The notes under the pieces are model-generated. The model did not search any database. It was not told where the DNA came from and was given only the letters and a program-made list of their open reading frames with translations. From an uncultured Gammaproteobacteria bacterium (lineage in GTDB: Bacteria; Patescibacteriota; Patescibacteriia; Magasanikbacterales; UBA922), in the NCBI GenBank assembly GCA_964447765.1, contig CAYUTO010000005.1, forward strand, positions 1 through 63,343: a stretch of 63,343 nt of DNA, read 5' to 3'. The translations under genes and the position numbers were made by a program. How positions within the stretch are numbered: position 1 is the first letter of the stretch; each line of letters begins with the position of its first letter. Positions 1 through 62,670 of this stretch are shown here, piece by piece.

Positions 1-142
1 GATCAATTTCCGCAAGCACAAAAAAATATCCCTGGTTTTCTCCATCTGGTTTACCAGGGGAAGCGATATGGAGGAGTACGTGGGATAGGTGACTATTTTT
101 TCCTTCAACAAAAAATTCGTATACTTCACTTTTTATAGACAT
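1..142 (-). CDS. Hypothetical protein, N-terminal 47 codons; runs off the window edge
   Basis: Manual translation from ATG at 142: MSIKSEVYEFFVEGKNSHLSHVLLHIASPGKPDGENQGYFFVLAEID, no stop before base 1; not in the ORF track. Confidence 0.6.
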   Translation of the reverse strand, partial: MSIKSEVYEFFVEGKNSHLSHVLLHIASPGKPDGENQGYFFVLAEID

Positions 143-241
143 AGCTTTTGACACTATAATACCTACATAGTATACTACAGACTGTCTATTTCGCAATAAC
201 GTACCCCTTTATTTTGCTTAAATACACAAGTTTTCAATCGT

Positions 242-841
242 ATGCTCGAACACTTATTTGGCTCAAAGACGCGAGTCAAAACTCTTAAATTACTATACCG
301 AAGGCCTGATCGACCTTTTTTTGTTCGTGAACTTTCTCGGGAAATTGGCGTACAGATCAATGCTGTGCGGAGGGAATTAGAGCTATTATTGAGGCTTGGC
401 ATTATTTTGGAGAAAACAGACACTAAGCCGGCCGACGTAGAGAAAGCAGGGGTCACGCTCCGTAAATATTATCAGTTGAACCCTGAATCATTATTGTACA
501 CAGAATTGCAGGCTCTTCTTATCAAAGAGACAGTTATCGAACAAAAACAGTTTATTGATGACCTGAGCACAAAAATTGGAGATATTAAATTGCTTATTTT
601 GACGGGTGCATTTACTCATGATATCAAGGTCGAGACTGATCTACTTATCATTGGTGTCGTAAAACTCCGTGCGCTCTCAAAACTTATTGAACACTACCAA
701 CATGAGATGGGATTTGATATCCGCTATACGATTATGACTGAAGATGAGTTTATTGATCGCAGATATGTGATGGATAAATTTTTATTCTCGATTTTTGAAG
801 CAGAACATGTCAAAGTTATTGATCAGATAACACAGAACTAG
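242..841 (+). CDS. Winged-HTH (ArsR-like) protein fused to a minimal nucleotidyltransferase-like domain
   Basis: N-terminal FVRELSREIGVQINAVRRELELL helix-turn-helix; C-terminal LTGAF...ETDLLIIG resembles the Pol-beta superfamily G[SG]...DxD motif. Confidence 0.7.
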   Translation: MLEHLFGSKTRVKTLKLLYRRPDRPFFVRELSREIGVQINAVRRELELLLRLGIILEKTDTKPADVEKAGVTLRKYYQLNPESLLYTELQALLIKETVIEQKQFIDDLSTKIGDIKLLILTGAFTHDIKVETDLLIIGVVKLRALSKLIEHYQHEMGFDIRYTIMTEDEFIDRRYVMDKFLFSIFEAEHVKVIDQITQN

Positions 842-843
842 GT

Positions 844-1233
844 ATGTACTTGTTTATTGATCCTGCGTCTCAAGACTCAATTCGATTGGTCGTCTTTTCA
901 AATAACACCTCTCGTGAACATGTATTTGAGGTAAGGAATAGGGATCTTCTGTTAGTTATTGTGGAAGCGCTTGATCGAGAGCGTGTAGCACTTGCAGATT
1001 TGCAAGGAATCGTAGTACTAGTTGGCGAAGGTAGGTTTTCCAGTACGCGAATTGCGAGCGTTGTTGGGAACACACTGTCGTATGTGCTACATATTCCAGT
1101 AGTTGCGACTACGAGAGGTGGTGAGCCGACGGATGCGACTATTGAGACCTTTTTTGCTGCATCGGATACTTCATATTACATTACTCCGACGTATAGTGGT
1201 GAGCCACATATTGGCACACATTCACCATCCTAA
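844..1233 (+). CDS. tsaB: Shortened TsaB/YeaZ-like t6A biosynthesis protein
   Basis: LFIDPA start, GIVVLVGEGRFSSTRIA (cf. GPGSFTGLRIG), LSYVLHIPVV; only 129 aa. Confidence 0.75.
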   Translation: MYLFIDPASQDSIRLVVFSNNTSREHVFEVRNRDLLLVIVEALDRERVALADLQGIVVLVGEGRFSSTRIASVVGNTLSYVLHIPVVATTRGGEPTDATIETFFAASDTSYYITPTYSGEPHIGTHSPS

Positions 1234-1240
1234 ATTTTCT

Positions 1241-2725
1241 ATGCTTTCACCCTATCAACGTTATCGTTTGTACGAAATGCTTCCGGGCATCTCTATATGG
1301 GGTACCCTCATTCTCGCGGTCGTTTTTTCTTTTTTATATCCGCTTGCAATGATTTACTTTATTATTATTTTTGATATCTATTGGGTGCTTAAAGTATTTA
1401 ATTTTTCTTTTTACTTAATCGTATCGTGGATTAGATACCGCAAAGTACAGCGGATTGATTGGAAAGACGCACTTCAGCATGATATTCCTGATGCCACACG
1501 CTTGCGTCACGTTGTTTTTTTGACTGTTCTTAATGAAACGTGGGATGTGGTCGAGGGTGCGGTCGCAAGTGTTGCGGCTTCTGTGTACAATCCGTCGTTG
1601 TTTACTTTGGTTATTGCTGGAGAAGAGCGTCAGGCGGAACATTGCAGATCATTGTTTCAAAAGATAGAAACTCGTTTTTCTGGTGTATTTGACCATATCG
1701 CTTTTACCCTTCATCCAAGTAACCTTCCTGATGAAATTCCAGGTAAAGGTTCTAATTTGCATTTTGCTGAAGGTGAAATGAAGAAGTATATTGATCAGCG
1801 TGGTTGGAAATATGAAGACGTAATTATTACGGTGTTTGATATTGATACGGTATGTCATCCTAATTATTTTGCGTATTTAACCTATACCTACGCTACTCAT
1901 CCAAATCCAACAAAGAGTTCATATCAACCGATCGCGCTCTACAATAATAATATGTGGGAGTCACCATCGGTGTTGCGTATTATGGCATTTGGTACCACAT
2001 TTTGGATGATGATGTCTCTTGCCCGTCAAGATTCGCTTGTTACATTTTCTTCACATTCGATGAGTTTCAAGGCACTAGTTGATGCAGGATTTCATGATAA
2101 ACGTATCGTGAGTGAGGATTCACGAATTTTTTATCAGTGTTTGCTTACATATAACGGGAAATATGAGGTAACTCCATTATATATCCCCGTATCGATGGAT
2201 ACGGTTCGGGATACTTCCTGGTGGCAGAGTATTCGAAATCTGTATCGGCAGCAGAGACGTTGGGCGTGGGGAGTAGAGCATGTACCGTTTTTATTGTGGG
2301 AATTTAGGAAAAAAGGAAAATTGATACCATGGTATACTAAATTTAAATGGCTTTTTATCGAATGGGAAGGTAAATGGTCGTGGTGTCTTGCAGCTCTTCT
2401 CATTACTATTCTTGGTAGATTCCCACTCTGGGTTGCTAGTCCAAGTATTAGACAAAGTGCACTGTATTTTAATGCTCCGCATTTACTTGAAATTCTTATG
2501 ACTGCTGCTATGAGTGGACTTATTCTTTCCGCGATGCTCAGTTTACCACTTCTCCCTCCTCGACCACAGTCACATCCAAAATATCGGTATGTAATCATGG
2601 TGTTGCAATGGATTTTATTACCTGTTTCAATGCTTTTTGTTGCTGCAGCTCCAGGTATTGATGCGGTAACGCATCTTATGCGTGGTAAATATTTAGGATT
2701 TAACATTTCTCAAAAAAAACGTTAA
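1241..2725 (+). CDS. Membrane GT2 glycosyltransferase with processive-synthase motifs
   Basis: N- and C-terminal TM helices, FDIDT (DxD), SED, QQRRW; start moved from track GTG 1103 (overlaps tsaB) to ATG 1241. Confidence 0.8.
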   Translation: MLSPYQRYRLYEMLPGISIWGTLILAVVFSFLYPLAMIYFIIIFDIYWVLKVFNFSFYLIVSWIRYRKVQRIDWKDALQHDIPDATRLRHVVFLTVLNETWDVVEGAVASVAASVYNPSLFTLVIAGEERQAEHCRSLFQKIETRFSGVFDHIAFTLHPSNLPDEIPGKGSNLHFAEGEMKKYIDQRGWKYEDVIITVFDIDTVCHPNYFAYLTYTYATHPNPTKSSYQPIALYNNNMWESPSVLRIMAFGTTFWMMMSLARQDSLVTFSSHSMSFKALVDAGFHDKRIVSEDSRIFYQCLLTYNGKYEVTPLYIPVSMDTVRDTSWWQSIRNLYRQQRRWAWGVEHVPFLLWEFRKKGKLIPWYTKFKWLFIEWEGKWSWCLAALLITILGRFPLWVASPSIRQSALYFNAPHLLEILMTAAMSGLILSAMLSLPLLPPRPQSHPKYRYVIMVLQWILLPVSMLFVAAAPGIDAVTHLMRGKYLGFNISQKKR

Positions 2726-4208: not shown

Positions 4209-4212
4209 TAGT

Positions 4213-5214
4213 ATGCGTAAAGTAGGAATTGATCTTGGTACCACAAATATTTTGGTATATATTCCAAAACGAGGGATTGTAGTAAACGAACCTTCTGTTG
4301 TTGCTATCTCAAAAGAAGATAGGAGAGTATTGGCGGTAGGAGCAGAAGCAAAAGAAATGATTGGTAGAACTCCTGATACGATTATCGCTGAGCGTCCGTT
4401 AAAAGATGGAGTTATTGCGAGTTACAAAACTACGGAAGCGATGCTTCGTTATTTTATTAATAAAGCACTAGGGGGAATTCGCTTATTTCGCCCTGAAGTG
4501 ATGGTCGCCGTACCTGCGGGGATTACCTCAACCGAGAGAAGAGCGGTGATTGACGCGGCTATGGCAGCTGGTGCAAAAGCGGCATATATTATTAAAGAGC
4601 CTATTGTTGCGGCAATTGGAGCTGATATTCCTATTGGCTCTCCATCTGGGCATATGATTATTGATATTGGTGGAGGAACTGCTGAAATTGCGGTTATTTC
4701 GCTGGGGGGAATTGTATCAGTTGGATCAGTGCGTATTGGAGGAAATAGGTTTGATCTATCAATTGCTGAATTTATACGCAGAAAATATGGACTTGCTATT
4801 GGAGAACAAAGTGCTGAAGAAGTGAAGATCCAGATTGGAAGTGCCATGTTTATGGATACCCCGCTCACTATGGATGTAAAGGGGAGAGATATGGTTACAG
4901 GTCTTCCACGTACGGTTACGGTCACGTCTGATGATACTACTGAAGCCTTGCAACATGATCTCGAAGGACTTATCGAGGCCGTAAAAGAAGTGTTGAATCG
5001 TACCCCTCCTGAACTCTCTGCTGATGTGATGAATAAAGGTATTATTATGTCTGGGGGATCAAGTTTGCTCAGAAATCTTGATGAGCTTATTGCGCAAGCA
5101 ATTGGGGTTGCGGCGTATGTGGCTGAAGAGCCATTGCTTTGTGTTGCAAAAGGCACGGGTATTGCGCTTGAGAATCTTGATAATTATAAACGATCGATTG
5201 TGTCGACGAGGTAA
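4213..5214 (+). CDS. mreB: Rod shape-determining protein MreB/Mbl
   Basis: IDLGTTN, EPSVVA, RPLKDGVIA, IDIGGGT, GGSSLL. Confidence 0.95.
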   Translation: MRKVGIDLGTTNILVYIPKRGIVVNEPSVVAISKEDRRVLAVGAEAKEMIGRTPDTIIAERPLKDGVIASYKTTEAMLRYFINKALGGIRLFRPEVMVAVPAGITSTERRAVIDAAMAAGAKAAYIIKEPIVAAIGADIPIGSPSGHMIIDIGGGTAEIAVISLGGIVSVGSVRIGGNRFDLSIAEFIRRKYGLAIGEQSAEEVKIQIGSAMFMDTPLTMDVKGRDMVTGLPRTVTVTSDDTTEALQHDLEGLIEAVKEVLNRTPPELSADVMNKGIIMSGGSSLLRNLDELIAQAIGVAAYVAEEPLLCVAKGTGIALENLDNYKRSIVSTR

Positions 5215-5282: not shown

Positions 5283-5289
5283 TTATTTT

Positions 5290-6459
5290 ATGATCATCGG
5301 TATTGACGCATCTCTAGTGGCTCGGGAACAACGTACGGGGGTGGAGTCGTATGCGTTTCAGATTATTACGCATTTGAGTACCGTTATTCCTTCTGAAGTT
5401 GAGGTTCGGCTCTACAGTGATCGTGCGCTCCCTACAAATTTTGTACAACGTATCCCTGCGCATTGGAAACAGATAATTCTTGCCTGGCCCCCTCGATTTT
5501 TGTGGACCCAAGTTCGGCTTAGTTTTGAGATGTTACAACATCCTCCAGATATTTTATTTGTGCCGGGACATGTAGAACCGGTGATTCAACCAAAAGCCAC
5601 TCTCATGATGGTACATGATGTAGCTGCATGGAGAGTTCCTCGTGCGTATTCAAAATTTGATCGGTGGTATACACTTTTTTTGACCATGAGGGCAGTACAG
5701 AAAAATCCAGTGATTCTTACTCCGAGTTTTTTTACTAAACAAGAATTAGAACAATTAGTACATGAACGAAAAATTACCAAAAAAGCTGAAGTATTGGTTA
5801 TTCCTCATGGTCATGTTTCTCGACGGATTACTGTTCCCACTACTCCTGCAAAAGTTTTTGTTCGCTACGGAATTGATCAAAATACTCGTTATATACTTTG
5901 TGTTGGTCGAATTGAATATAAAAAGAATATTGATACAATACTTTCCGCATTTGAGAAATTAAAGTCAGAAAACCCTGAACACACTACTCTGAAACTGGTA
6001 CTTGCGGGAAAGCCAGGTGTTGGATATGAGGATATACAGAGTTTGATTGCTTGCAGTCGGTACCGGACAGATATTATTGAAACTGGATGGCTTCATGAAG
6101 ATGAACTAATGCAACTATTTTTCCATGCGCGTGTATTGGCTTTTGTGAGTCGATATGAAGGATTTGGTTTTCCTGTTTTGGAGGCACTTGATCTTGGTGT
6201 TCCTGTTGTTGCTTCTCGTGGTATAGGTTTAGAAGAGGTGGGTGGAGTGTGTGTGACCTATGTATCTTCTACTGATCCAGATCAGATTTCTCGGGCAATA
6301 CAGAAAAGTCTTTCTCTTTCTTCGGCTGCTCGTCTTGAATTTGGAGCTCAGGCACGTGCGCATGTATCGCAGTTTTCTTGGGCTCGTTCTGCTGAGGCAA
6401 CCTATGGAGCTATCACGAGGGCATATGAAATTGCCGAGGCGAGTAAGCGTGTGATATGA
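5290..6459 (+). CDS. GT4 (glycosyltransferase family 1) protein
   Basis: MIIGIDAS...TGVESY start, VGRIEYKKN, SRYEGFGFPVLEAL. Confidence 0.9.
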   Translation: MIIGIDASLVAREQRTGVESYAFQIITHLSTVIPSEVEVRLYSDRALPTNFVQRIPAHWKQIILAWPPRFLWTQVRLSFEMLQHPPDILFVPGHVEPVIQPKATLMMVHDVAAWRVPRAYSKFDRWYTLFLTMRAVQKNPVILTPSFFTKQELEQLVHERKITKKAEVLVIPHGHVSRRITVPTTPAKVFVRYGIDQNTRYILCVGRIEYKKNIDTILSAFEKLKSENPEHTTLKLVLAGKPGVGYEDIQSLIACSRYRTDIIETGWLHEDELMQLFFHARVLAFVSRYEGFGFPVLEALDLGVPVVASRGIGLEEVGGVCVTYVSSTDPDQISRAIQKSLSLSSAARLEFGAQARAHVSQFSWARSAEATYGAITRAYEIAEASKRVI

Positions 6460-6474
6460 TTGTCTACAAGAACT

Positions 6475-7389
6475 ATGTCATGTATTGGTCATGAAAAAAT
6501 AATTTCTTTTTTTGATGCTTGTATTTCAGAGCGTAAGCTTAGTCATGCCTATGTTTTTTCTGGTCCACGGCATGTAGGTAAACGAACAATTGCTAATACT
6601 ATTGCACGAACTATTCTTGGTATTTCTCGGGACCAGGCACTGGTACATCCTGATTTGATTGTGGTTCAGCGGGAACTCGATGAGAAGACAGAAACTTTGA
6701 AAAAAGATATTAGTGTTACTCAGATTCGAGATTTGATCCATCGATTGAGTCAGAGTGCTTTTGCAAAAGATGGATATACTGTTGCAATTGTTGACGGAGC
6801 TGAACATATGAATGCGGCAGGAGCGAATGCGCTTTTGAAAACACTTGAGGAGCCACGAGCACGTACGATAGTTTTTCTTATTACTCAGGATGAGTACACA
6901 TTGTTACCTACTATCCGATCTCGGACGCAGTCAATATATTTTTCTCTCGTTGGTGTAGAAAAAATTAAAACGTACCTAGAATCTGTGGGTATTCCGGCTG
7001 GTCAGGCGGAGGAATATGCACATGAAGCTCATGGTTTGCCTGGATATGCCTGTGATTGGGCGCATGATTCGACTCTCTATGAATATCATGTGTCTCTCAA
7101 GCAGCGCTGCGTATCACTTATGCATATTCCGTTTTATGAGAAGATCAAAAAAATAGAAGAATTTTTTCAAGATAAAGATGACCATATTGAAGCGAGGGCA
7201 CGGATAATCGACATGCTTGGAGTTTGGACATTTACACTTCGTGATATAATGACGCTACACTCGTCTAATTCTGAGAGTCGATATGTAGTTTCTCAGGTAT
7301 TGGATTCAATACGTCACGCAGAAAAACAATTAAAACAGAATATTCACCCTAGATTAATTCTCGAGCATATCATGCTCGCACTACCTTAA
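6475..7389 (+). CDS. holB: DNA polymerase III subunit delta-prime
   Basis: SHAYVFSGPRHVGK, HPD, AANALLKTLEEP, LLPTIRSR; ATG 6475 preferred over TTG 6460. Confidence 0.9.
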   Translation: MSCIGHEKIISFFDACISERKLSHAYVFSGPRHVGKRTIANTIARTILGISRDQALVHPDLIVVQRELDEKTETLKKDISVTQIRDLIHRLSQSAFAKDGYTVAIVDGAEHMNAAGANALLKTLEEPRARTIVFLITQDEYTLLPTIRSRTQSIYFSLVGVEKIKTYLESVGIPAGQAEEYAHEAHGLPGYACDWAHDSTLYEYHVSLKQRCVSLMHIPFYEKIKKIEEFFQDKDDHIEARARIIDMLGVWTFTLRDIMTLHSSNSESRYVVSQVLDSIRHAEKQLKQNIHPRLILEHIMLALP

Positions 7390-8488: not shown

Positions 8489-8563
8489 ATTTAAATTGAG
8501 ATATCAAATCGTTCTCTTGTATATTTCGTGTAATGGGTAATTAATCAGTGTAATCAATGTCAT

Positions 8564-53614: not shown

Positions 53615-54721
53615 ATGTCATCAAAAGATTATTATAAAATTCTCGGTGTAGAAAAGACTGCGTCTGCCGAAGAAGTGAAAAAAGCATTTCGTAAGCTTGC
53701 GCATAAATATCATCCGGATAAGCAAGGAGGGGACGAAGCAAAGTTCAAAGAAGTGAACGAGGCTTTTCAGGTAATCGGTGATGAGACGAAGCGAAAGCAA
53801 TATGATCAGTTTGGTGCTGATTTCAATCAACAGGGTGGGTTTGGTGGTGGAATGAGTTGGGATGACTTTATGCGGGCTAGTCGTGGCCAGGGCGGAGCCC
53901 AGGGAGGATTTAATGGTAATTTTGGTGGGTTTGATTTTGGAGATATTTTTGGTGAGGCATTTGGGTTTGGTGGGGGCAGATCATCTCGTCAACGCAGAGG
54001 AAATGATATTCAGGTGGATATTGAATTAGAATTCAAAGATGCTGCATTTGGTATTGATCGAGAAATTAAGCTTACCAAAAATAATGCGTGCGATGTATGT
54101 ACTGGATCTGGCGCTGAACCTGGAAGCAAGGTTAATAATTGTGAAGAATGTAAAGGGTCTGGGCAAGTTCGACGAGTACAGCAAACGATACTTGGTGCCA
54201 TGCAAACAGCGGTAACTTGTTCCAAATGTAAGGGTGTAGGAAAATTTCCAGAAAAAAAATGTAAGCATTGTGGTGGTGATGGAGTTGTTCGTAGTGAATC
54301 ATCATATAATGTAAAAATTCCCGCTGGAATTTCTGAGGGTGAGGCAGTACGATTGGCTGGAAAAGGTGAGAGTGGCGGAGCGGGAGTAGTGCCAGGTGAT
54401 TTGTATATTCGTGTGCATGTTCGCGAACACAAAGGCTGGGAACGTGATGAATATGATATCCATAGTGAGATTGCTATCAACTATCCTCAAGCAGTGCTTG
54501 GAGATACAGTACCTGTAGAGACTCTTGATGGAGAAAAGAAAATTGCAGTGCCTGAGGGTGTACAAGCGGGGCAAGTAATTCGTCTGAAGGGTTTAGGAAT
54601 CCCTCGTTTGCACGGCACAGGGAGAGGGGATCACTATGTACATGTGAAAGTTGATGTACCAAAGAAAATTTCGAAGGCTGCGAAGAAATTGATTGAAGAG
54701 TTGAAGAGTGAATTAGAGTAA
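53615..54721 (+). CDS. dnaJ: Chaperone DnaJ
   Basis: HPD J-domain, G/F region, four CxxCxGxG repeats. Confidence 0.98.
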
Positions 54722-54753: not shown

Positions 54754-55194
54754 TTACACAATAACTAGGTGTGTTTGTAGTTCTTCTACATCGTCCTCTA
54801 ATCTTTCTATCCGTCCTTCATGTCGCAGCAGTGCATGGTTAGTTGCTGCCATCTCCTCAGTCATTTTCTTGAGTACTCCGGTTATCTCATCCTGTACGGT
54901 GAGAATAGTATTTAAATTTTCTGGGATGTCCTTTATTTTTTCTTTGATGTCTGACACATTAGTTTGAAGATTAACGATTGATGTTGCCATTCTGTCAGCT
55001 GTGCTAGACAGTGTTTCTACTCTTCCTGATAGGATGCCCACTGTTCCAGAGAGTGTGCTGACTGTCCCAGTCAATTGATCTACTGTCCCGGTTAACGTGT
55101 CAACTACTCCAACTGTCTTATTTACTGTTTCCTTAATCTCAGAAACATCTGTTTGAAGCTGGGTTATTGGCTCAGCTATTTTATCTTCCTCCAT
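54754..55194 (-). CDS. Heptad-repeat coiled-coil protein
   Basis: TGTVDQL TGTVSTL SGTVGIL SGRVETL; ACTGTYCC at 55040, 55061, 55082 (21-bp spacing); AAGGAGG SD. Confidence 0.75.
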   Translation of the reverse strand: MEEDKIAEPITQLQTDVSEIKETVNKTVGVVDTLTGTVDQLTGTVSTLSGTVGILSGRVETLSSTADRMATSIVNLQTNVSDIKEKIKDIPENLNTILTVQDEITGVLKKMTEEMAATNHALLRHEGRIERLEDDVEELQTHLVIV

Positions 55195-55253
55195 ATAATT
55201 CCTCCTTAAGAATAATATGTGTATGTTATCTTACTCTGTGAAACATTGTCAAT

Positions 55254-55658
55254 TTAGTACGCTTTACCATCAAGTACGCGATTGACTTCTGCATCGGCTT
55301 CTTTATTTTTATGCCGCAATACATGGGTAATTCTCACTCGTTTGAATTTTTGTAACAAATTCCATGCTTCAATAAATAGTTTTTGAAGTGTTGGTTCTTT
55401 TACTTTCCATCGTCTGTTCAGTTGTTCTACGACGAGTTTACTATCCGCAATGCATTCTACTTCGTCGGCTCCTAGTTCCAGTGCTTTTTTGAGCCCAGAA
55501 ATAATTGCCATGTATTCGGCATAATTATTTGTTTGTTTGCCTAGATAATCACCAAATGCACTTACTTTTTTTCCTGTATCATCTTTGATTACTACTCCAG
55601 TTGCTGCAGGACCTGGATTTCCTCGAGCTCCGCCGTCGGTGTAGATAGTTAGTTTCAT
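55254..55658 (-). CDS. rnhA: Ribonuclease HI family protein
   Basis: YTDGGARGNPGPA, TNNYAEY, DSKLVVEQ, NKEADAEVN. Confidence 0.93.
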   Translation of the reverse strand: MKLTIYTDGGARGNPGPAATGVVIKDDTGKKVSAFGDYLGKQTNNYAEYMAIISGLKKALELGADEVECIADSKLVVEQLNRRWKVKEPTLQKLFIEAWNLLQKFKRVRITHVLRHKNKEADAEVNRVLDGKAY

Positions 55659-55670
55659 AAGTTTTATGGC

Positions 55671-55754: not shown

Positions 55755-57524
55755 TTATTGATTAACTTCTGATTTTCTTAGATCGACGATAGTCAACTGC
55801 AATTCTCTATTTCCATTCCATTCGTTTACGTTAATGTGGAATACCATATCAATTTTATCACCAGGCTTCAGTACTTTGCCCCAATTAGTGTCTCCATCAC
55901 AGAGTCCCCAGCCAATGGTTTTTTTTATTTTATGCGTTTTATGTTTTACCATGATTCGCAAATGTTTTCCTTCTTTTCCTACTGGTTGAATTTGGTGTAC
56001 GGTGACACCTCGAGCGAGGTATTGGGGCTGTTCATTTGCGACACCAAATGGTTTGAATTTATCCAGTATATCAAATAATTCCCAATTCACATCCTCGACA
56101 TCAATTTCTGCATCCACGAGAAGGGTAGGAGTCATGTCTAAACCTTTTGTTTTTTCAATGTACGCTTTATTAATTGCTACTTTAAATTCATTGAACTTTT
56201 CTTTTGAAAGTAAGGTAAACCCGCATGCCATCGGGTGCCCACCAAATTTGAGGAAATATTGTGGCATTTCTTGCAGTGTCGCGATCATATCAAATCCGGG
56301 TACACTTCTGCCTGAGGCAACAATTACACCTTCATTTTCGGCGCACACGATGGTGGGTTTGTGGTATTTTTCTTTGAGTCGTCCCGCAATGAGTCCTACG
56401 AGTCCTGGAGACCAGCCGACTCCATAGATAAGGATGACTGATGCATCTTTGTCTTTTTGCGCTTGTTGAATGGCTTCTTTTGCAAGTTCTTCAGTAAGTT
56501 TTTGACGGTCTTGGTTATTGGTATTCAGTTCAAATGCGAGATCGATTGCATCAGTTCCTTTTTCTGCAATCATGAGATTAAAAGCAGTTTTTGCATGATT
56601 CATTCTTCCTGCAGCATTAATTCGGGGTGCAATTTGAAAGCCGATAGTATCGGTGGTGATTTCTTTTTTCTTTTCATCGCCTTCTTGATGAAATCGTGCT
56701 TCGAGTAATAATTTTTTTAAACCCAAACGACGAGTATGATTGAGTACGATTAATCCATATTTGGTGAGTGTGCGTGATTCTCCAATTAGGGGGATCATGT
56801 CAGCTACGCTTGCGATCGCGACCATATCCAAAAGCCATTTTTCGTGCGACTCGTGGTTTTTTCCGTTAGGCAGTAATTCATTCGATTCTTTGTGTTTTCT
56901 CATGAGTCCTTGTACTAGTTTGAATGCTACTCCTCCACCTGCAAGATTTTTGTCTGGGTATAATTCTCCCGGAACTTTTGGGTGAATTATGGCGAATGCT
57001 GGGGGCGGAATTTCTGGTACTGCATGGTGATCGGTCACGATTACATCAATTCCTGCTTCTTGTAGTTTTATAATTTCGGCTACATTACTTACCCCACAGT
57101 CGCAGGTGACTACTAGATTCACTTTGTCTTTGATAAATGTATTGACGGTATTCATGCTGAGTCCATAGCCATCGCGTTCTCGGTGGGGGATAAAGACATT
57201 GGTATTTTTACTCCCAAGTGCTCGAAATGTGGAAACGAGTATTACTGATGCTGATACACCGTCAGCATCGTAGTCCCCGTGCACGATGATTGATTCTTGA
57301 TTTTCTATAGCTTTAAAAATTCGAGCAATCGCTTTTTCCATATCCTTGAATAGGAATGGATCATAGATATTTCGCTCATAATCAGGATTCAAAAATTCGT
57401 CTATTTCTTTTTGAGTCCGCATATTTCGATGGTACAACAAACGAGCCACAATAGGGAGTAGTTCGGGATGTTCTTCCATGAATTGTTCGGGAGGCGCTGG
57501 TTGGAGCGCCCATTTTTTTTGCAT
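55755..57524 (-). CDS. recJ: ssDNA exonuclease RecJ
   Basis: GDYDADG, TCDCG, TDHH, APRINAAGR, GGHPMACG, C-terminal OB fold. Confidence 0.97.
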   Translation of the reverse strand: MQKKWALQPAPPEQFMEEHPELLPIVARLLYHRNMRTQKEIDEFLNPDYERNIYDPFLFKDMEKAIARIFKAIENQESIIVHGDYDADGVSASVILVSTFRALGSKNTNVFIPHRERDGYGLSMNTVNTFIKDKVNLVVTCDCGVSNVAEIIKLQEAGIDVIVTDHHAVPEIPPPAFAIIHPKVPGELYPDKNLAGGGVAFKLVQGLMRKHKESNELLPNGKNHESHEKWLLDMVAIASVADMIPLIGESRTLTKYGLIVLNHTRRLGLKKLLLEARFHQEGDEKKKEITTDTIGFQIAPRINAAGRMNHAKTAFNLMIAEKGTDAIDLAFELNTNNQDRQKLTEELAKEAIQQAQKDKDASVILIYGVGWSPGLVGLIAGRLKEKYHKPTIVCAENEGVIVASGRSVPGFDMIATLQEMPQYFLKFGGHPMACGFTLLSKEKFNEFKVAINKAYIEKTKGLDMTPTLLVDAEIDVEDVNWELFDILDKFKPFGVANEQPQYLARGVTVHQIQPVGKEGKHLRIMVKHKTHKIKKTIGWGLCDGDTNWGKVLKPGDKIDMVFHINVNEWNGNRELQLTIVDLRKSEVNQ

Positions 57525-57550
57525 ACGATTAATAGAACACGGATGGTGCG

Positions 57551-57748: not shown

Positions 57749-58333
57749 TTATGTTAATTGCCATGAATGAATGAGTTTGCGGCAGGTATTGTAATTTCCC
57801 AAATGATATAGCGCAAGTTTGGAAGAGGTAAATGTTTTGGGTATTTGATCTCTTTCTTTCTCACTTTTCGTCCATGACGTAATATGTGGGTTGAAATTAT
57901 CGAGACTATACTTTGAATCAAATTCATTAATCCACGTCAGGACTGAAGGATCGATTATTTCACCTGGATCAGTTCGGTGGTACATTTCAGCGGTACCTCC
58001 TCGTTCAAATACGACATATACTTTTTCCATTAGTGTGGCGTGGAGCTCCATCAATTCTTTTGTCCGGCTAATTGTTATCCAGGGATTATTAGTGTGCGCG
58101 ACAGCGAGTTCGATTTTTTCTATGAATGAAACAATATTATTTATTTCATCTATTACTTTTTTTTCGTTTTCAGTATCTAGTACGCCCATGACGAGTGAGA
58201 GATGGGGTACATAATCTTCAAACCCGAGCCTGACCAGTGTCTGTTGTTTTGCAAAATCTTCGTTGTTTGATTGTACGATGCGTTCAATGATTGGTAGTGG
58301 GGGAATGAGTACGATGTCTGCGGTGTATTTCAT
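57749..58333 (-). CDS. 2H phosphoesterase (2'-5' RNA ligase superfamily)
   Basis: Two HxS/T motifs: PHLSL and PHITS. Confidence 0.8.
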   Translation of the reverse strand: MKYTADIVLIPPLPIIERIVQSNNEDFAKQQTLVRLGFEDYVPHLSLVMGVLDTENEKKVIDEINNIVSFIEKIELAVAHTNNPWITISRTKELMELHATLMEKVYVVFERGGTAEMYHRTDPGEIIDPSVLTWINEFDSKYSLDNFNPHITSWTKSEKERDQIPKTFTSSKLALYHLGNYNTCRKLIHSWQLT

Positions 58334-58335
58334 AG

Positions 58336-60123
58336 TTATCGTTTCAATACTGCCAAATATGCTTCGGTTGGAATATTCACTTTTCCTTTGCTCATAGAGA
58401 GCATTTTTTTCTTTCCTTTTTTCTGGCGATCGAGCAATTTATTTTTTCTGGTTACGTCACCGCCATATAGTTTTGCGGTGACGTCTTTTCGGAGTGCGGA
58501 TATTCGTTCACTTGCAACTATTTTTCCACCAATCATTGCCTGGATTTTAATGACAAATTGTTCGCGATCAAGTGTATCTTTCAATACTTCTACAATTTTT
58601 TTGCCTGCTCGGTGCGCGTCATCTTCCCAGACGAGGGTTGCGAGCTCTTCCACTGCTTCGTCAGCAATTGAGATATCGAGTTTCACTACATTTGCTTCGC
58701 GGTATTCTTTGTAATCATAATTAAGTGATGCGTAGCCGCTTGAAACAGATTTCAGTTTATCATAAAAATCAGTGATGAGTGAAGCTAGAGGCATGTCATA
58801 ATGAAGCATGGCACGCTGCCCTGCGCCAGTGCTTAGATATTCGGTATTTTTGTATACTCCTTTTCGTTCAGCAATAAGCCCCATGATGTTTCCAATGTAT
58901 TCTTGGGGGGTGATAATGTCGACAGTCATCCATGGCTCTTCGATATGTTCAATTTTTTGCACTTCAGGAAGATCTTGTGGACTTTTGATAATGAGATCTT
59001 CTCCATTTGTTTTGAATACATGGTAGGCAACACTCGGAATGGTTGCAATAATGGAAAGCCCAAATTCACGACGAAGGCGTTCTTGAAAAATTTCGAGATG
59101 AAGCATTCCTAAGAGTCCACATCGGAATCCAAATCCGAGCGCTTGGGAATGCTCTGGTTCGTAGTAAAGCGCTGAATCACTTAATTTTAGTTTGTCTACT
59201 GCTTCGCGGAGTATTTTGTAATCATCTCCTTCGCGAGGAAAAATACCGGCAAATACCATGGGTTTTACTTCTTTGTATCCGTCCAATTGTTCGGTCGCAC
59301 CATTTTTGGTAAATGTAATCGTATCACCGACACGCACATCACCTAATACTTTCACTCCACTGGTGAGATATCCGATTTGTCCGTTTTCAAGAATGCCGTC
59401 TGAAGACATCTGTGGAGAAAAATGTCCGATATCCAATACTTCTCCCGTAGCACCAGTTCCCATGAATAGTATTGCGTCTCCTTTTTTCATGCTCCCGTCT
59501 TTCATTCTGATCGCAGCGACAATTCCACGGTAGTCATCATACATGGAATCAAAAATTAGGGCACGGGCCGGTAAGTTACTCGTCTCAACTGGTGGAGGAA
59601 CTTTTTTAATCACTTCATCCAATAGTTCGGGAACACCGACGCCTGTTTTTCCAGAGCAGGTAAGAATTTCTTCACGAGTGCATCCGAGCAAATGAATAAT
59701 TTCTGCAGCAACTTTATCTGGGTCAGCATTTGGTAAATCAATTTTATTCATTACTGGAATAATCGTAAGGTTTTGATCGATCGCAAGATATAAATTTGCA
59801 ATAGTCTGTGCTTGTACACCCTGACTTGCGTCGACCAGAAGAATGGCGCCTTCGACTGCAGCAAGCGATCGTGATACTTCGTAGGTAAAATCTACGTGCC
59901 CGGGGGTATCAATGAGGTTGAGTGTGTAGCCTTTGTGCTTCATACGCACTGGCTGGAGCTTGATGGTGATCCCACGTTCTTGTTCGAGCTCCATCTGATC
60001 AAGAATTTGAGCTTTCATGTTTCGTTTGTCTATAGTTCCAGTAACCTCAAGAAATCGATCCGCGAGAGTTGATTTGCCGTGGTCAATGTGAGCTATGATG
60101 CAGAAGTTTCTAGTTTGACTCAT
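58336..60123 (-). CDS. lepA: Elongation factor 4
   Basis: RNFCIIAHIDHGKSTL, ERGITIK, GFRCGLLGMLH, RKDVTAKLYGGD. Confidence 0.98.
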   Translation of the reverse strand: MSQTRNFCIIAHIDHGKSTLADRFLEVTGTIDKRNMKAQILDQMELEQERGITIKLQPVRMKHKGYTLNLIDTPGHVDFTYEVSRSLAAVEGAILLVDASQGVQAQTIANLYLAIDQNLTIIPVMNKIDLPNADPDKVAAEIIHLLGCTREEILTCSGKTGVGVPELLDEVIKKVPPPVETSNLPARALIFDSMYDDYRGIVAAIRMKDGSMKKGDAILFMGTGATGEVLDIGHFSPQMSSDGILENGQIGYLTSGVKVLGDVRVGDTITFTKNGATEQLDGYKEVKPMVFAGIFPREGDDYKILREAVDKLKLSDSALYYEPEHSQALGFGFRCGLLGMLHLEIFQERLRREFGLSIIATIPSVAYHVFKTNGEDLIIKSPQDLPEVQKIEHIEEPWMTVDIITPQEYIGNIMGLIAERKGVYKNTEYLSTGAGQRAMLHYDMPLASLITDFYDKLKSVSSGYASLNYDYKEYREANVVKLDISIADEAVEELATLVWEDDAHRAGKKIVEVLKDTLDREQFVIKIQAMIGGKIVASERISALRKDVTAKLYGGDVTRKNKLLDRQKKGKKKMLSMSKGKVNIPTEAYLAVLKR

Positions 60124-60212
60124 AATTTGAAACAATATTTTGCTAGGTTGAGCTATTTTTTTTGTTATTTATATAGTCTTATTTTAGCTGAACTTAGTAT
60201 AAAAAGCAAGGA

Positions 60213-60241
60213 TTGACAAAATGGCTAAAATAGGGTATTAT
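60213..60241 (+). promoter_or_regulatory. Promoter of the pentapeptide-repeat gene
   Basis: TTGACA-N17-TATTAT. Confidence 0.7.
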
Positions 60242-60299
60242 TTTTTGTTCTGTTACTTTTGGTGGCAGAGTCAAGAAGGTTTAATCTGGGAGGATTTAC

Positions 60300-60908
60300 A
60301 TGTCAGATGCTAAAGAAGAAAAGCAGCTTTTTGAGTTGCTCAAGTCGGGTGATCGCGAGGCTTTCAATGCTCTGCAGGAGGCAAGGATCACACAGGATGG
60401 TTCTGACTCTTCCCTCGAGGACGCACGCCCGATAGGTCTGCACTTCGTGGATAAAGAGCTCACGAATTTCGACTTTCGAGGTTTCGACTTGTCCGATGTC
60501 TCGTTCAAGAGCTGTGATCTCTCAGGTGGAAACTTCGAGGGAATGGATCTGAGATCGACTCATCTGTACCTGTGTCTGTTGGTCGGTGCGAACCTCAACG
60601 ACACTAACCTCTCGTACTACGGGAAGGATGATGATCCTTGGACGAGTCCGTTCAAACTGCTTGGTGCGAACCTTACGGGTGCTTCACTCATCGGCGCGAA
60701 CCTCCATGGACAGGTTCTGATCTCGTACTCGGGAGAGGATGTCAATCTTCGTGGTGCAAACCTGACCAACGCGAAGTTGAGCAAGTGCAAACTCAAGCGG
60801 ATCCCTGTTGAGGTGTGGGCATCGATCATCGGGCTTGAGACGGTCTATGGACTGCCTCATGGCATCTATGCAGATGCCGCAGCATATCGCCGCGAGATGC
60901 GCGAGTGA
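60300..60908 (+). CDS. Pentapeptide-repeat protein, GC-elevated
   Basis: FDFRG FDLSD, ANLND TNLS, ANLTG ASLIG ANLHG, ANLTN AKLSK; GGGAGG SD; 32/60 and 31/60 GC in two spot counts. Confidence 0.88.
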   Translation: MSDAKEEKQLFELLKSGDREAFNALQEARITQDGSDSSLEDARPIGLHFVDKELTNFDFRGFDLSDVSFKSCDLSGGNFEGMDLRSTHLYLCLLVGANLNDTNLSYYGKDDDPWTSPFKLLGANLTGASLIGANLHGQVLISYSGEDVNLRGANLTNAKLSKCKLKRIPVEVWASIIGLETVYGLPHGIYADAAAYRREMRE

Positions 60909-61020
60909 TAGGCTGAGACAAAGAAGTCCTGATAATTCTGCCGACTGATCTTGAGGTAATTCAGCCTCGGTCATGCGCCCAATAAAAGGGCAAAGGCGAC
61001 TGCAACATGCGGTCGCCTCA

Positions 61021-61060
61021 AAACAAAACCCCATGAATTAATCACGGGGTTTTGTTTTTT
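61021..61060. terminator. Bidirectional terminator
   Basis: AAACAAAACCCC-N13-GGGGTTTTGTTT between convergent genes. Confidence 0.8.
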
Positions 61061-62670
61061 TATTTTTCAATCGATCCAATTTCCGGATCAGGAGTTTTGA
61101 CTTTGAACCATTTTTTTCTGAAACTTTCGACGAATACTTGCATTTCTTCTACTCGGACGAGGTAACAGATTAATCCATATACAATCAGCCCTATTATTCC
61201 TGAGATTAGTCCTTGTGCAAATATTCCCCAGAATTTTTGCATGTCGACTATACTCGCTATTACATATTTCAATGCTTGTATCACCATTCCCATACCAGCC
61301 GCAGCAACCGAAATTTTTGCGAGTGTTTGGAGTACTAGACTTTCGTTAAGAGATCCTAATTTTACTCGAAGAAGCATCCAGAGGAGTGCCATCTGTGCGG
61401 TAGCACTTATCGAATATCCGAATGCTAATCCAGGTACTCCCCAGTGTTTGCTCGCGTATAGTCCAACGGTAATATTTATTCCTGCAGATATAAGCGTTGT
61501 CATGAGTGGGATCCAGGTATTTTTGAGTGCAAAAAAAGCTCGGGTAAGGGTGGGAGTAAGTGATTGCGCAAATAATGAAATAGAGAAAAACGCAAGACAA
61601 TGTGCAGTGAGAATAGTGTCTTCCCAGTCGAATGCACCAGTGCCGAGTACGACACGTACAATCTGTGCGCGGAGTAACAATATAATGATGGTGAGCGGAA
61701 TAATGAGCCAGATAATTTGTCGTGCGATTCGGGAAATTCGATCTCTCATTTCTGCTATATTTTTTTCTGCATAGAGTTCTGAGAGGGTAGGGAAGATAGC
61801 GATTGCAAATGAAATACCAATAATTCCTGTGGGCACAGCTTGTAGATTATCTGCAAAAGAAAATATGGAGAGACTTCCGGCACCAATGGTTGATGCAATG
61901 ATGGTGATTGCGATGACATTTACCTGGTTTGCAGCAGCCCCAAGCATGCGAGGAATCATGAGTTTACCAATTGTTCGCACTGCTTGATTGTGCAATTGAA
62001 GAGTGGGGCGATATCGATATCCGTATTGTATGACTGCTGGGAGTTGAATAATGAGGTGTAAGAATGCTCCCAATACGACGCCATACGCAAGTCCAATGGT
62101 ACCAACTATTGGTACCAAGAAAATAGCACCAACAATAATTCCCATGTTGTACATGATTGGTGTGAGGGAATAGATGGCAAATGCTTTGTAGGATTGGAGA
62201 ACACTTCCGAAAATACTGCTGAGTCCAAGAAGTATGGGACTTACAAACATGATACGAGTGAGCGTAATTGTGAGTGCGAGTTTATCTCCTCCGAATCCTG
62301 GGGTGAGCCACTGGATAAGTGCGGGCGTCTGCCACATGGCAATGGCTGATAGCGTGATTAATAAAATTCCCAGAATGTTTACAATACCGTTTACTACTTC
62401 CCACGACTCTTCCTTATTTTTTTTCATTACCTCAATAAACACGGGTATAAATCCTGCAGAAAGTGCGCCGATAATGAGGAGGCTGTACACCAGGTCTGGA
62501 ATTTTGAATGCGGCGTAATATGCATCCATTACATCTCCGGCACCGTAGTAATGTGCAAATACACGATCCCGAAGCATTCCTATGATTCTACTCATAAGCG
62601 AAGCAGCCCCGACCAAAATCGCGGCTCCTGTAATACTATGGATTTTTGAAGAGAGTATGTTTTTTATCAC
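61060..62670 (-). CDS. murJ: Lipid II flippase MurJ (MviN)
   Basis: SRIIGMLRDR, AYYAAFKIPD, GALSAGFIPVF, AFFALKNTWIP; GTG start. Confidence 0.95.
   Translation of the reverse strand: MIKNILSSKIHSITGAAILVGAASLMSRIIGMLRDRVFAHYYGAGDVMDAYYAAFKIPDLVYSLLIIGALSAGFIPVFIEVMKKNKEESWEVVNGIVNILGILLITLSAIAMWQTPALIQWLTPGFGGDKLALTITLTRIMFVSPILLGLSSIFGSVLQSYKAFAIYSLTPIMYNMGIIVGAIFLVPIVGTIGLAYGVVLGAFLHLIIQLPAVIQYGYRYRPTLQLHNQAVRTIGKLMIPRMLGAAANQVNVIAITIIASTIGAGSLSIFSFADNLQAVPTGIIGISFAIAIFPTLSELYAEKNIAEMRDRISRIARQIIWLIIPLTIIILLLRAQIVRVVLGTGAFDWEDTILTAHCLAFFSISLFAQSLTPTLTRAFFALKNTWIPLMTTLISAGINITVGLYASKHWGVPGLAFGYSISATAQMALLWMLLRVKLGSLNESLVLQTLAKISVAAAGMGMVIQALKYVIASIVDMQKFWGIFAQGLISGIIGLIVYGLICYLVRVEEMQVFVESFRKKWFKVKTPDPEIGSIEK

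Follow-up and report, generated by a model that had tools for sequence, protein, structure and literature searches.

Start sites in the window

The window, i.e. the whole stretch of 63,343 nucleotides analysed, belongs to a genome of Candidatus Magasanikbacteria (Patescibacteria, candidate phyla radiation, class ABY1). Its curated start sites are listed below by position and strand, each with the start codon and the base before it, together with two Shine-Dalgarno (SD)-like motifs; "first ATG" denotes the first ATG of the ORF.

241..244, +, TATG start of 242-841 (199 aa, HTH-like); first ATG; independently called alike in loci L091-L094
843..846, +, TATG start of 844-1233 (129 aa); from the ORF list; L091 calls the same start
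1240..1243, +, TATG start of glycosyltransferase 1241-2725; 494-aa product independently called in L091-L094
2729..2732, +, TATG start of DUF4012 protein 2730-4208; first ATG; upstream stop 4 nt before
4212..4215, +, TATG start of mreB 4213-5214; NCBIfam N-terminus, residues 2-3 at profile 4-7; 4-nt gap
5289..5292, +, TATG start of GT4 glycosyltransferase 5290-6459; first ATG
6474..6477, +, TATG start of holB 6475-7389; first ATG past a TTG; profile fit; 304-aa product in L091
7402..7405, +, TATG start of 7403-8488; first ATG; 13-nt gap
8563..8566, +, TATG start of frr 8564-9109; NCBIfam, residue 7 at profile 2
9273..9276, +, AATG, true exception, ABC ATPase 9274-10638; residue 1 at profile 1; AATG also in close relatives L091 and L093
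10639..10642, +, TATG start of permease 10640-11920; upstream stop 1 nt before (TAGTATG)
12077..12080, +, TATG start of 2167-aa FN3-repeat protein 12078-18581; first ATG
18803..18806, +, TATG, candidate glycine-tRNA ligase start (ambiguous); first ATG; profile position 1 is the CATG at 18819
20206..20209, +, TATG start of M16 peptidase-like 20207-21466; first ATG
21598..21601, +, CATG, true exception, triose-phosphate isomerase 21599-22342; residue 5 at profile 5; ORF has no upstream ATG
22338..22341, +, TATG start of TPR protein 22339-23241; overlaps upstream gene by 4 nt (ATGA)
23505..23508, +, TATG start of 85-aa ORF 23506-23763; first ATG
24232..24235, -, TATG start of peroxiredoxin 23767-24234; first ATG; residues 8-10 at profile 2-9
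24322..24325, +, TATG start of methyltransferase-like 24323-24886; first ATG past a GTG
25268..25271, +, TATG start of 25269-25916; first ATG
26020..26023, +, TATG start of 26021-26431 (uncertain gene); first ATG; rival ORF on opposite strand
26731..26734, +, TATG start of 26732-27583; first ATG
27677..27680, +, TATG start of 27678-28283; first ATG
28446..28449, +, TATG start of typA 28447-30234; profile position 1 is 2 residues past the ATG
30493..30496, +, TATG start of 30494-31696; first ATG
31869..31872, +, TATG start of DEAD-box helicase 31870-33312; first ATG; profile from residues 7-10
34175..34178, -, TATG start of 33368-34177; first ATG
34228..34231, +, TATG start of 34229-35590; first ATG
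35595..35598, +, TATG start of 35596-36513; 5-nt gap
36517..36520, +, TATG start of 36518-37516; first ATG; 4-nt gap
37522..37525, +, TATG start of 37523-38707; 6-nt gap
38791..38794, +, TATG start of uppP 38792-39592; profile position 1 is exactly this ATG
39648..39651, +, TATG start of 80-aa ORF 39649-39891; first ATG
39910..39913, +, TATG start of RND adaptor-like 39911-41563; 19-nt gap
41665..41668, +, TATG start of CCA-adding enzyme 41666-43117; first ATG
43131..43134, +, TATG start of ABC ATPase 43132-43857; residue 1 at profile 1
43886..43889, +, TATG start of MacB-type permease 43887-45125; first ATG; profile fit
45135..45138, +, TATG start of second MacB-type permease 45136-46365; profile from one residue past the ATG, paralogue alike
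46482..46485, +, TATG start of 46483-47202; first ATG
47210..47213, +, TATG start of 47211-47831; 8-nt gap
47861..47864, +, TATG start of 47862-48878; first ATG
48964..48967, +, TATG start of hrcA 48965-49648; profile position 1 is 2 residues past the ATG
49657..49660, +, TATG start of 49658-50167; 9-nt gap
50186..50189, +, TATG start of 50187-50990; 19-nt gap
51023..51026, +, TATG start of dnaK 51024-52964; residue 1 at profile 1
53021..53024, +, TATG start of 53022-53606; first ATG
53614..53617, +, TATG start of dnaJ 53615-54721; residue 1 at profile 1
55192..55195, -, TATG start of coiled-coil protein 54754-55194; first ATG; strong SD ahead
55200..55207, -, AAGGAGGA, SD-like motif 6 nt ahead of ATG 55194; -12.1 kcal/mol to the canonical anti-SD
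55656..55659, -, TATG start of RNase HI 55254-55658; residue 1 at profile 2
57522..57525, -, TATG start of recJ 55755-57524
58331..58334, -, TATG start of 57749-58333; upstream stop 2 nt before
60121..60124, -, TATG start of lepA 58336-60123; profile fit
60288..60294, +, GGGAGGA, SD-like motif 6 nt ahead of ATG 60300; duplex -10.2 kcal/mol
60299..60302, +, CATG, exception, pentapeptide-repeat protein 60300-60908; first ATG; strong SD
62668..62671, -, TGTG, probable GTG start of murJ 61060-62670; orthologues 529-558 aa

The first ATG of the ORF of glycosyltransferase 1241-2725 is a GATG further upstream, at 1133. For murJ, a start at ATG 62595 was rejected as internal, orthologues having GTG, TTA or CTC there.

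Genes were also defined mechanically, as greedy non-overlapping ORFs of at least 80 aa starting at the first ATG, GTG or TTG after a stop. This gave 54 genes; in 39 of these ATG is the first start codon, with T before it in 34 of the 39 (binomial P = 1e-12). The five others were 9274 (A), 21599 (C), 60300 (C), 45097 (A) and, on the minus strand, 63268 (G). The last two were rejected as starts: the AATG at 45097 entails a 29-nt overlap with the upstream gene and the family profile sets in only at the TATG at 45136, while the CorA gene 62693-63268 runs off the window, profile positions 109-290 of 292 being matched. The true exceptions are therefore 9274, 21599 and 60300, the same three that had been named in a first-pass annotation of this DNA; its count of T at -1 in 36 of 39 genes is thus reproduced in substance, and the pattern holds on both strands, as it had stated. 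Its figure of about 54 of 56 with homology-chosen starts included agrees with the curated list (n = 54), which comprises 50 TATG, one TGTG, two CATG and one AATG and in which start choice is partly circular for a few genes.

Simply taking the first ATG in each ORF gave T at -1 in 46 of 51 cases. Where an ORF opened with TTG or GTG the first in-frame ATG was almost always TATG, consistent with family profiles. The profile fit is exact for UppP (38792), the starts of TypA, LepA, HrcA and HolB also fit, and in the window profiles back 16 TATG starts and 2 non-T starts. Internal in-frame ATGs, by comparison, show no similar enrichment: T precedes 32% of them (111/348) and 21.5% of out-of-frame ATGs, and it makes up 40.5% of third codon positions.

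Content of the start signal

In the pooled set of loci described below, position -1 was the only informative upstream position (0.84 bit). Each position from -30 to -2 carried less than 0.06 bit, -2 and the rest being at background level, and T makes up 38% of the T-rich sequence upstream. With the anti-SD taken in its canonical form, which may not be the host's own, duplex energy averaged -0.64 kcal/mol at starts versus -2.53 kcal/mol mid-gene, SD-using loci giving -4.8 to -7.9 kcal/mol; neither the 16S gene nor the tRNA-fMet gene lies within the window. Strong SD motifs were found, as first annotated, at two genes only, 55194 (minus strand) and 60300. The former, the coiled-coil gene, is present in the closest relative L001 only; the latter has no orthologue in L001-L003 and is thus an accessory gene.

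Genes lying at most 25 nt behind the previous one in an operon have T at -1 in 16/16 cases in the window and 31/34 in the pooled set. Non-AUG starts are mostly T-preceded too (tGTG or tTTG in 3/4 cases in L096 and L097, and murJ in the window). The residual non-T starts are mostly C: two in the window, two in L095, three in L099 and four of ten in an Uhrbacteria locus.

The RNA around true starts is G-poor, and local structure is weaker there than at internal TATGs (MFE -5.6 vs -10.0 kcal/mol, P = 2e-25). Such internal TATGs number about 4.6 per gene on the sense strand and are not avoided (O/E 0.92, the same as in controls), so that TATG alone cannot select starts. The first-pass interpretation therefore stands in part. 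T at -1 is selected, start-specific and the sole position-specific upstream signal, with SD absent, but the 0.84 bit it carries does not make UAUG the main start-site determinant that had been proposed.

Distribution across lineages

When five independent Magasanikbacteria loci (35-56% GC) were pooled, T was found at -1 in 104/116 starts against a background of 29% (P = 1.5e-42). In a genome of 55-56% GC the counts were 12/15, 10/11 and 18/20, with only 12-15% for its internal ATGs. Gene calls made by others, including non-syntenic regions, gave 58/66 and 41/45 (88-91%), with AUG as the start codon in 66/72, about 90%. The mechanical rule gave 90%, versus 37-42% for AT-rich control loci in the same analysis, and other bacterial loci gave 200/660 (30%), mildly above their background of 19%. 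A comparison across Patescibacteria showed the trait to be lineage-restricted: Magasanikbacteria and Veblenbacteria have it in strong form and Uhr-, Moran- and Doudnabacteria in partial form, and it is absent from the other Patescibacteria loci analysed (L098, L100 and L033) and from most other bacteria. The suggestion that it belongs to the lineage and not to this window is therefore borne out.

T at -1 is kept at orthologous starts in RNase H (8/8), RecJ (8/8) and DnaK (5/5), while the other upstream sequence is unalignable; it is also kept in DnaJ and in all Magasanikbacteria copies of lepA. As judged from these orthologues, T at -1 is under purifying selection. No prior description of a near-universal U before AUG starts in such a lineage was found in the literature.

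Possible basis of the preference

At the level of sequence, initiation in this lineage evidently proceeds without SD pairing, at an AUG preceded by U in G-poor, weakly structured mRNA, and the same context evidently serves both at 5' ends with short leaders and 1-20 nt past the stop of an upstream cistron. The lineage may have made a weak, known start context almost obligatory. We propose that U(-1) would add a fourth Watson-Crick pair, to A37 in the initiator tRNA (quadruplet UAUG:CAUA), and so stabilise the initiation complex on an mRNA that is not anchored by an SD:anti-SD helix. In E. coli this context is worth about 20%; here it could in this way gain enough value for selection to bring it to about 90% of genes. 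UAUG would then be a near-obligatory context and not a site selector, the remaining specificity coming from how accessible a site is and where on the mRNA it lies (near the 5' end, or placed for re-initiation after termination). We regard this combination, quadruplet pairing with selection supplied by structure and position, as reasonably probable. The single extra informative position, -1 and not -2, matches the expectation for a quadruplet pair. A37 is nearly universal in the initiator tRNAs of bacteria and is assumed for this lineage on that ground; yet most lineages show only a mild excess of T at -1, so that pairing by itself fails to explain the extreme one. An extra factor would have to raise the value of U(-1) here, for example an anti-SD that is lost or masked, or initiation factors that have changed.

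A more tentative possibility is that U, or a pyrimidine, at -1 is read not by the tRNA but by the ribosome or an initiation factor, a lineage-specific change having made the preference strict; 16S rRNA residues at the E/P-site mRNA kink, uS7, uS11, bS1 and IF3 are candidate readers. This would suit a trait restricted to certain lineages when A37 is expected to be universal, and CPR ribosomes are altered in both rRNA and proteins (PMC9297842). The residual C at non-T starts also fits a pyrimidine preference (e.g. through stacking or ribosome contact) as well as it fits strict U:A pairing. It is A37 pairing, however, that has direct compensatory-mutation evidence, and the window holds nothing bearing on ribosome components. 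We know of no bacterial reader of the -1 base.

It is improbable that UAUG is instead an RNA processing site, at which an endonuclease cuts polycistronic mRNA between U and A to give leaderless cistrons and 70S starts. Such cutting would accord with upstream sequence that otherwise carries no information, with nearly exclusive AUG, a requirement of leaderless translation, and with the same signal at operon-internal and promoter-proximal genes. Given the abundance of unavoided internal TATGs, however, an endonuclease specific for UAUG would break down the cell's own mRNAs unless RNA structure restricted it. To our knowledge no enzyme with this specificity has been described.

Very unlikely, and already largely refuted, is the reading of T at -1 as a transcription-start signal (Y at -1, R at +1) on leaderless mRNAs beginning at the A of AUG. 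RNA polymerase does generally favour Y(-1)R(+1), and in a few genes, e.g. 20207 and 46483, a TATAAT-like box ends 6-9 nt ahead of the ATG, but the retention of T at -1 in operon-internal genes rules this explanation out. Furthermore, -10-like hexamers lie 0-54 nt upstream, most at 19-35 nt, with no peak at leaderless spacing, and positions -12 to -7 are uninformative in the pooled set. Finally, a compositional or start-calling artefact (T-rich intergenic DNA, biased start choice) is refuted by the control loci, the GC-rich genome, the outside gene calls and the profiles, as well as by the background level at -2 and all other positions, even though upstream regions are rich in T and some first-pass starts and a few curated ones were picked with the pattern in view.

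Comparison with known systems

The proposed U(-1):A37 pairing has a precedent in direct experiments. Among some 200,000 variants in E. coli, U(-1) had the largest single positive effect (+23%), which followed compensatory changes at position 37 of tRNA-fMet (Hollerer & Jeschek 2023, PMC10018350); extended pairing at petA of the Chlamydomonas chloroplast (Esposito et al. 2003) is cited there. Base (U), position (-1) and the single extra position at the start codon are alike in both cases. In E. coli, however, U(-1) is a modest modulator, on average, on top of SD, whereas here it marks about 90% of genes, lineage-wide and with SD absent.

Bacteroidia likewise initiate independently of SD; their upstream adenines are "Kozak-like" and their anti-SD is sequestered (Baez et al. 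2019, PMC6847099; Jha et al. 2021, PMC7797042). They share with the present lineage the essential absence of SD, G-poor, weakly structured upstream RNA and rare strong SDs. Their signal, however, is A at -3, -6, -12 and -13, positions that are uninformative here (A at -3 0.35 vs background 0.32), and Bacteroidota loci in the same analysis had T at -1 in only about 12-60% of starts. No genome survey for a -1 preference is included in the E. coli paper or in the Bacteroidetes paper.

Some Parcubacteria have lost the anti-SD motif, CCTCCT being detected in 48% (Tsurumaki et al. 2022, PMC9297842); that study covers the rRNA side only and is silent on start marks in mRNA and on whether Magasanikbacteria are among the lineages without the motif. 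Parcubacteria belong to the same superphylum, and SD initiation is dispensable in some CPR lineages.

Leaderless initiation occurs in Actinobacteria, Deinococcus, archaea and mitochondria. It shares with this lineage a strong preference for AUG and the absence of an upstream ribosome-binding motif, but most starts here are not transcript 5' ends, as genes inside operons and the scattered positions of promoter-like boxes indicate. The eukaryotic Kozak sequence is likewise a short, near-universal context beside the AUG and modulates how the initiator tRNA complex recognises that codon; there it is a purine at -3 with 5'-cap scanning, here a U at -1 on polycistronic mRNAs.

T at -1 at the starts in the window

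The gene set was built mechanically from ORFs of 80 aa or more, picked greedily and without overlap, each start being taken as the first ATG, GTG or TTG after a stop, and start context played no part in its construction. In the 63,343 bp of the window (40% GC) this gave 54 genes, 39 with ATG as the first start codon, and T was found directly before the ATG (T-1) in 34 of these 39 (binomial P 1e-12). The other five were:

9274: A at -1
21599: C at -1
60300: C at -1
45097: A at -1
63268, minus strand: G at -1

Position 45097 was rejected as a start, as it would give a 29-nt overlap with the upstream gene and the MacB-type profile begins one residue after the TATG at 45136, whose position relative to that profile is exactly that of the paralogue at 43887. 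Position 63268 (-) was also rejected: 62693-63268 corresponds to residues 109-290 of the 292 in the CorA profile, the gene being cut by the window end. With these two removed, the remaining exceptions are the same three genes that had been named in the first-pass annotation, where T-1 was counted at 36 of 39 ATG starts; the excess is thus confirmed by a rule blind to context. It is not shared by ATGs inside genes, where T-1 was seen at 32% of in-frame (111/348) and 21.5% of out-of-frame occurrences, against a T content of 40.5% at third codon positions.

Fifteen ORFs begin with TTG or GTG, and in nearly all of them the first in-frame ATG is a TATG. This ATG fits the family-model N-terminus exactly for UppP (38792) and agrees with it for TypA (28447), LepA (60123), HrcA (48965) and HolB (6475). 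Taking simply the first ATG in each ORF gave T-1 in 46/51, and a curated list of 54 starts, some of whose choices are partly circular, contained 50 TATG, two CATG, one AATG and one TGTG. The start of glycine-tRNA ligase is ambiguous between TATG 18804 and CATG 18819, profile position 1 aligning with the CATG.

Some other features of the window were noted:

61060-62670 (-): murJ; orthologues have GTG, TTA or CTC where the window has TATG 62595, which is therefore internal to MurJ, the start being most likely GTG 62670, with T before that GTG
12078-18581 (+): protein of 2167 aa with a Kelch motif and at least eight repeats of the purple-acid-phosphatase-N/FN3 type; it is probably one of the giant surface proteins that are common in CPR bacteria
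48965-49648 (+): HrcA, 227 aa from the TATG, matching only residues 1-127 of the 338 in the profile; the orthologue in the related locus L006 is likewise short (216 aa), so the lineage seems typically to have a truncated HrcA
25126-25201 (+): tRNA-Thr(GGU), found by ARAGORN and not by Rfam at the gathering threshold; the other four tRNAs were detected by both

About 45 of the 54 genes lie on the plus strand, and the base counts are G 14628 against C 10748 (skew +0.15) and T 19962 against A 18005. The whole window is probably on one replichore, with its genes co-oriented with replication.

Conservation in Magasanikbacteria

The best 120 homologues of LepA and of TypA (74-99% and 72-96% identical, respectively) are nearly all named Candidatus Magasanikbacteria or 'Patescibacteria group', a lineage placed by GTDB in class ABY1 (PMC12641178). 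RecJ is 87-97% identical in the closest genome records, one labelled Magasanikbacteria and two 'uncultured Gammaproteobacteria'. The latter label, carried by the MAG records L001 (CAYSXR010000004.1) and L003 (CAZMEW010000004.1), looks wrong from their sequences. The mechanical rule was applied to homologous loci, and typA loci with entirely different neighbouring genes (L095-L097) were added.

T-1 at ATG starts in Magasanikbacteria loci other than the window
L006 (GW2011_GWA2_56_11, 55% GC): 12/15; internal ATGs 12-15%; mechanical rule
L007 (GW2011_GWA2_56_11, 55% GC): 10/11; internal ATGs 12-15%; mechanical rule
L008 (42% GC): 13/15; mechanical rule
L010 (35% GC): 20/21; mechanical rule
L011 (40% GC): 13/14; mechanical rule
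L095 (56% GC): 18/20
L096: 7/9
L097: 16/16

Pooling the window with L006, L008, L010 and L011 gave T-1 at 104/116 starts (90%) against 29% at internal ATGs (P = 1.5e-42), which extends the observation beyond the window. The gene calls in the public records, made without regard to -1, have ATG at 66/72 starts and T-1 at 58 of these 66. T also precedes 3/4 of the GTG or TTG starts called in L096 and L097, and the 10 kb that precede the window in L091 hold a further six TATG starts. In orthologues T-1 is kept at 8/8 RNase H, 8/8 RecJ and 5/5 DnaK starts, and the remaining 24 bases upstream show no relationship from one species to another. This implies purifying selection on orthologous starts. 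An artefact of composition or gene calling was considered and rejected, given the identically analysed control loci, the relative with 55% GC, the calls made by others and the family-profile N-termini.

Anatomy of the signal

Among the upstream positions of the pooled starts, -1 carries 0.84 bit of information and each position from -30 to -2 less than 0.06 bit. The value at -2 is 0.02 bit, which leaves -1 alone as informative.

No SD motif 5-10 nt upstream of most starts was found among the 116 pooled starts. The mean duplex energy of positions -20 to -2 with ACCUCCUUA, the canonical anti-SD, from which the lineage's own 16S tail may differ, was -0.64 kcal/mol. Mid-gene sequence pairs more strongly (-2.53 kcal/mol), and the identical analysis gave -4.8 to -7.9 kcal/mol in SD-using control loci. 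The adenines of the Bacteroidia type were also sought in the pooled set and no preference was seen: the frequency of A is 0.35 at -3, 0.40 at -6 and 0.34 at both -12 and -13, where the background is 0.32, and each position holds below 0.06 bit.

The duplex energies bear out the earlier remark that strong SD motifs occur at only two window genes, both of them accessory:

54754-55194 (-): coiled-coil protein, AAGGAGGA + TATG; present only in the closest relative
60300-60908 (+): pentapeptide-repeat protein, GGGAGGA + CATG; present in none of the related loci L001-L003

Shortly before the window begins there is a third such gene start (L091:3995, GGAGG + CATG). GGAGG stands at the correct spacing in 2/64 occurrences, against about 0.16 expected by chance, and many internal GGAGG-N(3-11)-ATG combinations are tolerated. 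The two SD-bearing genes may be recent imports from SD-using donors, and import explains the two spaced GGAGG as well as a working anti-SD would.

Several stored calls in L091 (5231, 7643-9955 (-), 18224 and similar) have GTG or TTG starts, one of which adjoins the G-rich, SD-like string 'aagggggcacgttaTTG', and RRF is called at 204 aa in one record against 181 aa in the window and in the comparison locus L093. All these calls look like errors of SD-trained gene callers in an SD-free lineage.

A leaderless or transcription-start reading, in which the message would begin at the A of AUG, was rejected, as T-1 is retained inside operons and the spacing of -10-like boxes varies. All 16 window genes that lie at most 25 nt behind a co-directional gene have T-1; in the pooled set the figure is 31/34 for such genes and 60/67 where the gap is at least 50 nt. 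The -10-like hexamers are found 0-54 nt upstream, with no peak at 6-8 nt, and positions -12 to -7 of the pooled set each hold less than 0.05 bit. As most of these hexamers lie 19-35 nt upstream, short leaders are indicated rather than leaderless mRNAs.

At most operon junctions 1-19 nt separate the two genes (for example 2725/2730, 10638/10640 and 58336/58333), with sequences such as TAGTATG and TAATTATATG. Among co-directional window junctions a 4-nt overlap (ATGA) occurs once, and overlaps of 1 nt (TAATG or TGATG) do not occur; the absence of the latter fits a requirement for T-1, because such overlaps force A at -1.

Sufficiency of TATG

The 116 pooled genes contain 532 further sense-strand TATGs, about 4.6 per gene, 218 of them in frame. 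Internal TATG was examined for avoidance, which would point to a potent signal, and none was detected, the observed/expected ratio being 0.92 against 0.91 and 0.79 in control groups, and T precedes 29% of in-frame ATGs compared with 36% of Ile codons and 30% of all ANN codons. Because these further TATGs are so many and are not under-represented, TATG by itself cannot define starts. True starts are distinguished by their surroundings: the 60-nt minimum free energy is -5.6 kcal/mol at starts and -10.0 kcal/mol at internal TATGs (P = 2e-25), and the GC content is 0.33 and 0.41, respectively.

Within 40 nt of starts ATG occurs at 8-10 per kb against 16-18 deeper in genes, and TATG at 1.7-2.1 against 4.4 per kb, both comparisons being subject to confounding by base composition and by the choice of the first ATG as start. 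Just downstream of starts the ATG/GAT ratio is 0.60, and elsewhere it is 0.81-0.95. This roughly two-fold scarcity of ATG and TATG near starts, with the same confounding, is suggestive and would fit selection against competing starts.

Distribution across bacteria

A metagenome scan with a LepA alignment yielded 80 loci, group labels being assigned by exact-sequence cluster look-ups.

T-1 at ATG starts outside the Magasanikbacteria loci
Veblenbacteria: 10/13
Unlabelled relative (61% identity): 5/7
L099 (GCA_020632445.1), labelled 'Candidatus Nomurabacteria': 17/21
Moranbacteria: 11/19
Uhrbacteria (61% GC): 5/11; internal ATGs 4%
Doudnabacteria: 8/19
Parcubacteria GW2011_GWF2_38_76: 1/8; SD-like motifs 6/8
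L098 (comparison locus): 10/24; A-rich upstream
L100 (comparison locus): 6/17; A-rich upstream
All other loci, mostly Bacteroidota and SD users: 200/660 (30%); internal 19%
Subset of these other loci below 45% GC: 41%; internal 27%

T-1 is therefore graded across Patescibacteria, from about 90% through 50% to background. Only Magasanikbacteria and close relatives approach fixation, and a slight excess is found widely, which the E. coli data discussed below would predict. L099 may be mislabelled, given its start context of the Magasanikbacteria type. Two Bacteroidales-type metagenome loci have T-1 at 5/7 (L069) and, at 58% GC, 5/9 starts (L077; internal ATGs 2%), and other Bacteroidota loci range from 12 to 60%. 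Some Bacteroidales may have a partial preference, the numbers being small.

Mechanism

Magasanikbacteria starts thus combine a start-specific, selected U at -1 of the mRNA with an SD-free, weakly structured context, at internal as well as first cistrons. Among about 200,000 5'UTR-CDS variants in E. coli, U at -1 had the largest single positive effect (+23%), and this effect tracks position 37 of tRNA-fMet in a compensatory fashion; earlier chloroplast work agrees with a U(-1)-A37 contact (PMC10018350). Pairing of U(-1) with a presumed A37 of the initiator tRNA is likely to be the contact behind T-1. A fourth base pair of this kind would stabilise Magasanikbacteria initiation complexes that have no SD helix, and the absence of that helix would raise the selective value of the pair to near-fixation. 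The first-pass annotation had proposed UAUG as the main start determinant; the contact it invoked is likely right, and 'main determinant' overstates the role of one extra base.

We hold more tentatively the further idea that the initiator tRNA reads UAUG as a near-obligatory quadruplet, which would replace the SD helix as the sequence-specific contact. An altered 16S 3' tail or altered initiation factors may go along with such reading. Neither a tRNA-Met gene nor rRNA was found in the window or the loci compared with it.

The main rival to tRNA pairing is a ribosomal contact that reads a pyrimidine at -1, and the residual non-T starts, which are mostly C, fit this. A lesser one, a U|A processing site that produces leaderless cistrons, sits poorly with the abundance of internal TATGs and the lack of any avoidance of them.

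In the text of Tsurumaki et al. 2022 the anti-SD motif CCTCCT is detected in only 48% of Parcubacteria, mRNA start contexts are not among the features examined and the status of Magasanikbacteria is not given. In that text loss of uL1 is also linked with loss of the anti-SD, and for this reason the presence of uL1 elsewhere in the genome matters. In the 10 kb upstream of the window (L091:5137-7484) rplJ-rplL is preceded by tRNA-Glu and an acyltransferase gene, not by rplK-rplA.

Significance and comparison with known systems

In a full-text literature search, covering few subscription journals, no earlier account of a TATG/UAUG context at CPR starts came to light. SD-independent initiation, start-codon context and tRNA-mRNA contact are each known; what appears from the sequences to be new is their variant here. 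To our knowledge, start choice without an SD in bacteria is an open question, answered in detail for Bacteroidia only, and the Magasanikbacteria lineage presents a second answer that differs at the sequence level. As far as we know, the U(-1):A37 contact was until now limited to a minor quantitative influence in E. coli and chloroplasts. The lineage lends itself, as a natural case, to tests of quadruplet pairing at initiation and, if the quadruplet reading is true, would be the first natural lineage in which such pairing is near-obligatory and genome-wide. As T-1 is graded by lineage, its frequency can be set against variation in rRNA, tRNA and initiation factors. Current gene callers consider motifs 3-15 nt upstream and ignore -1, and with a T-1 rule the starts of many uncultivated bacteria, which form a large group, would be annotated better.

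Canonical SD-led initiation relies on a purine-rich upstream motif, which most Magasanikbacteria starts lack, and on a free anti-SD (CCUCC) at the end of the 16S rRNA. In leaderless initiation the signal is confined to first cistrons, whereas here operon-internal genes share T-1. With the SD-independent initiation of Bacteroidia, absence of the SD and reduced structure at the start are shared, but there the upstream adenines are at -3, -6, -12 and -13 (PMC6847099), for which no preference is seen here, the signal being T-1. The Bacteroidia type is further marked by a scarcity of AUG beside the start and by an anti-SD that bS21, bS18 and bS6 sequester. [quoted passage not shown]
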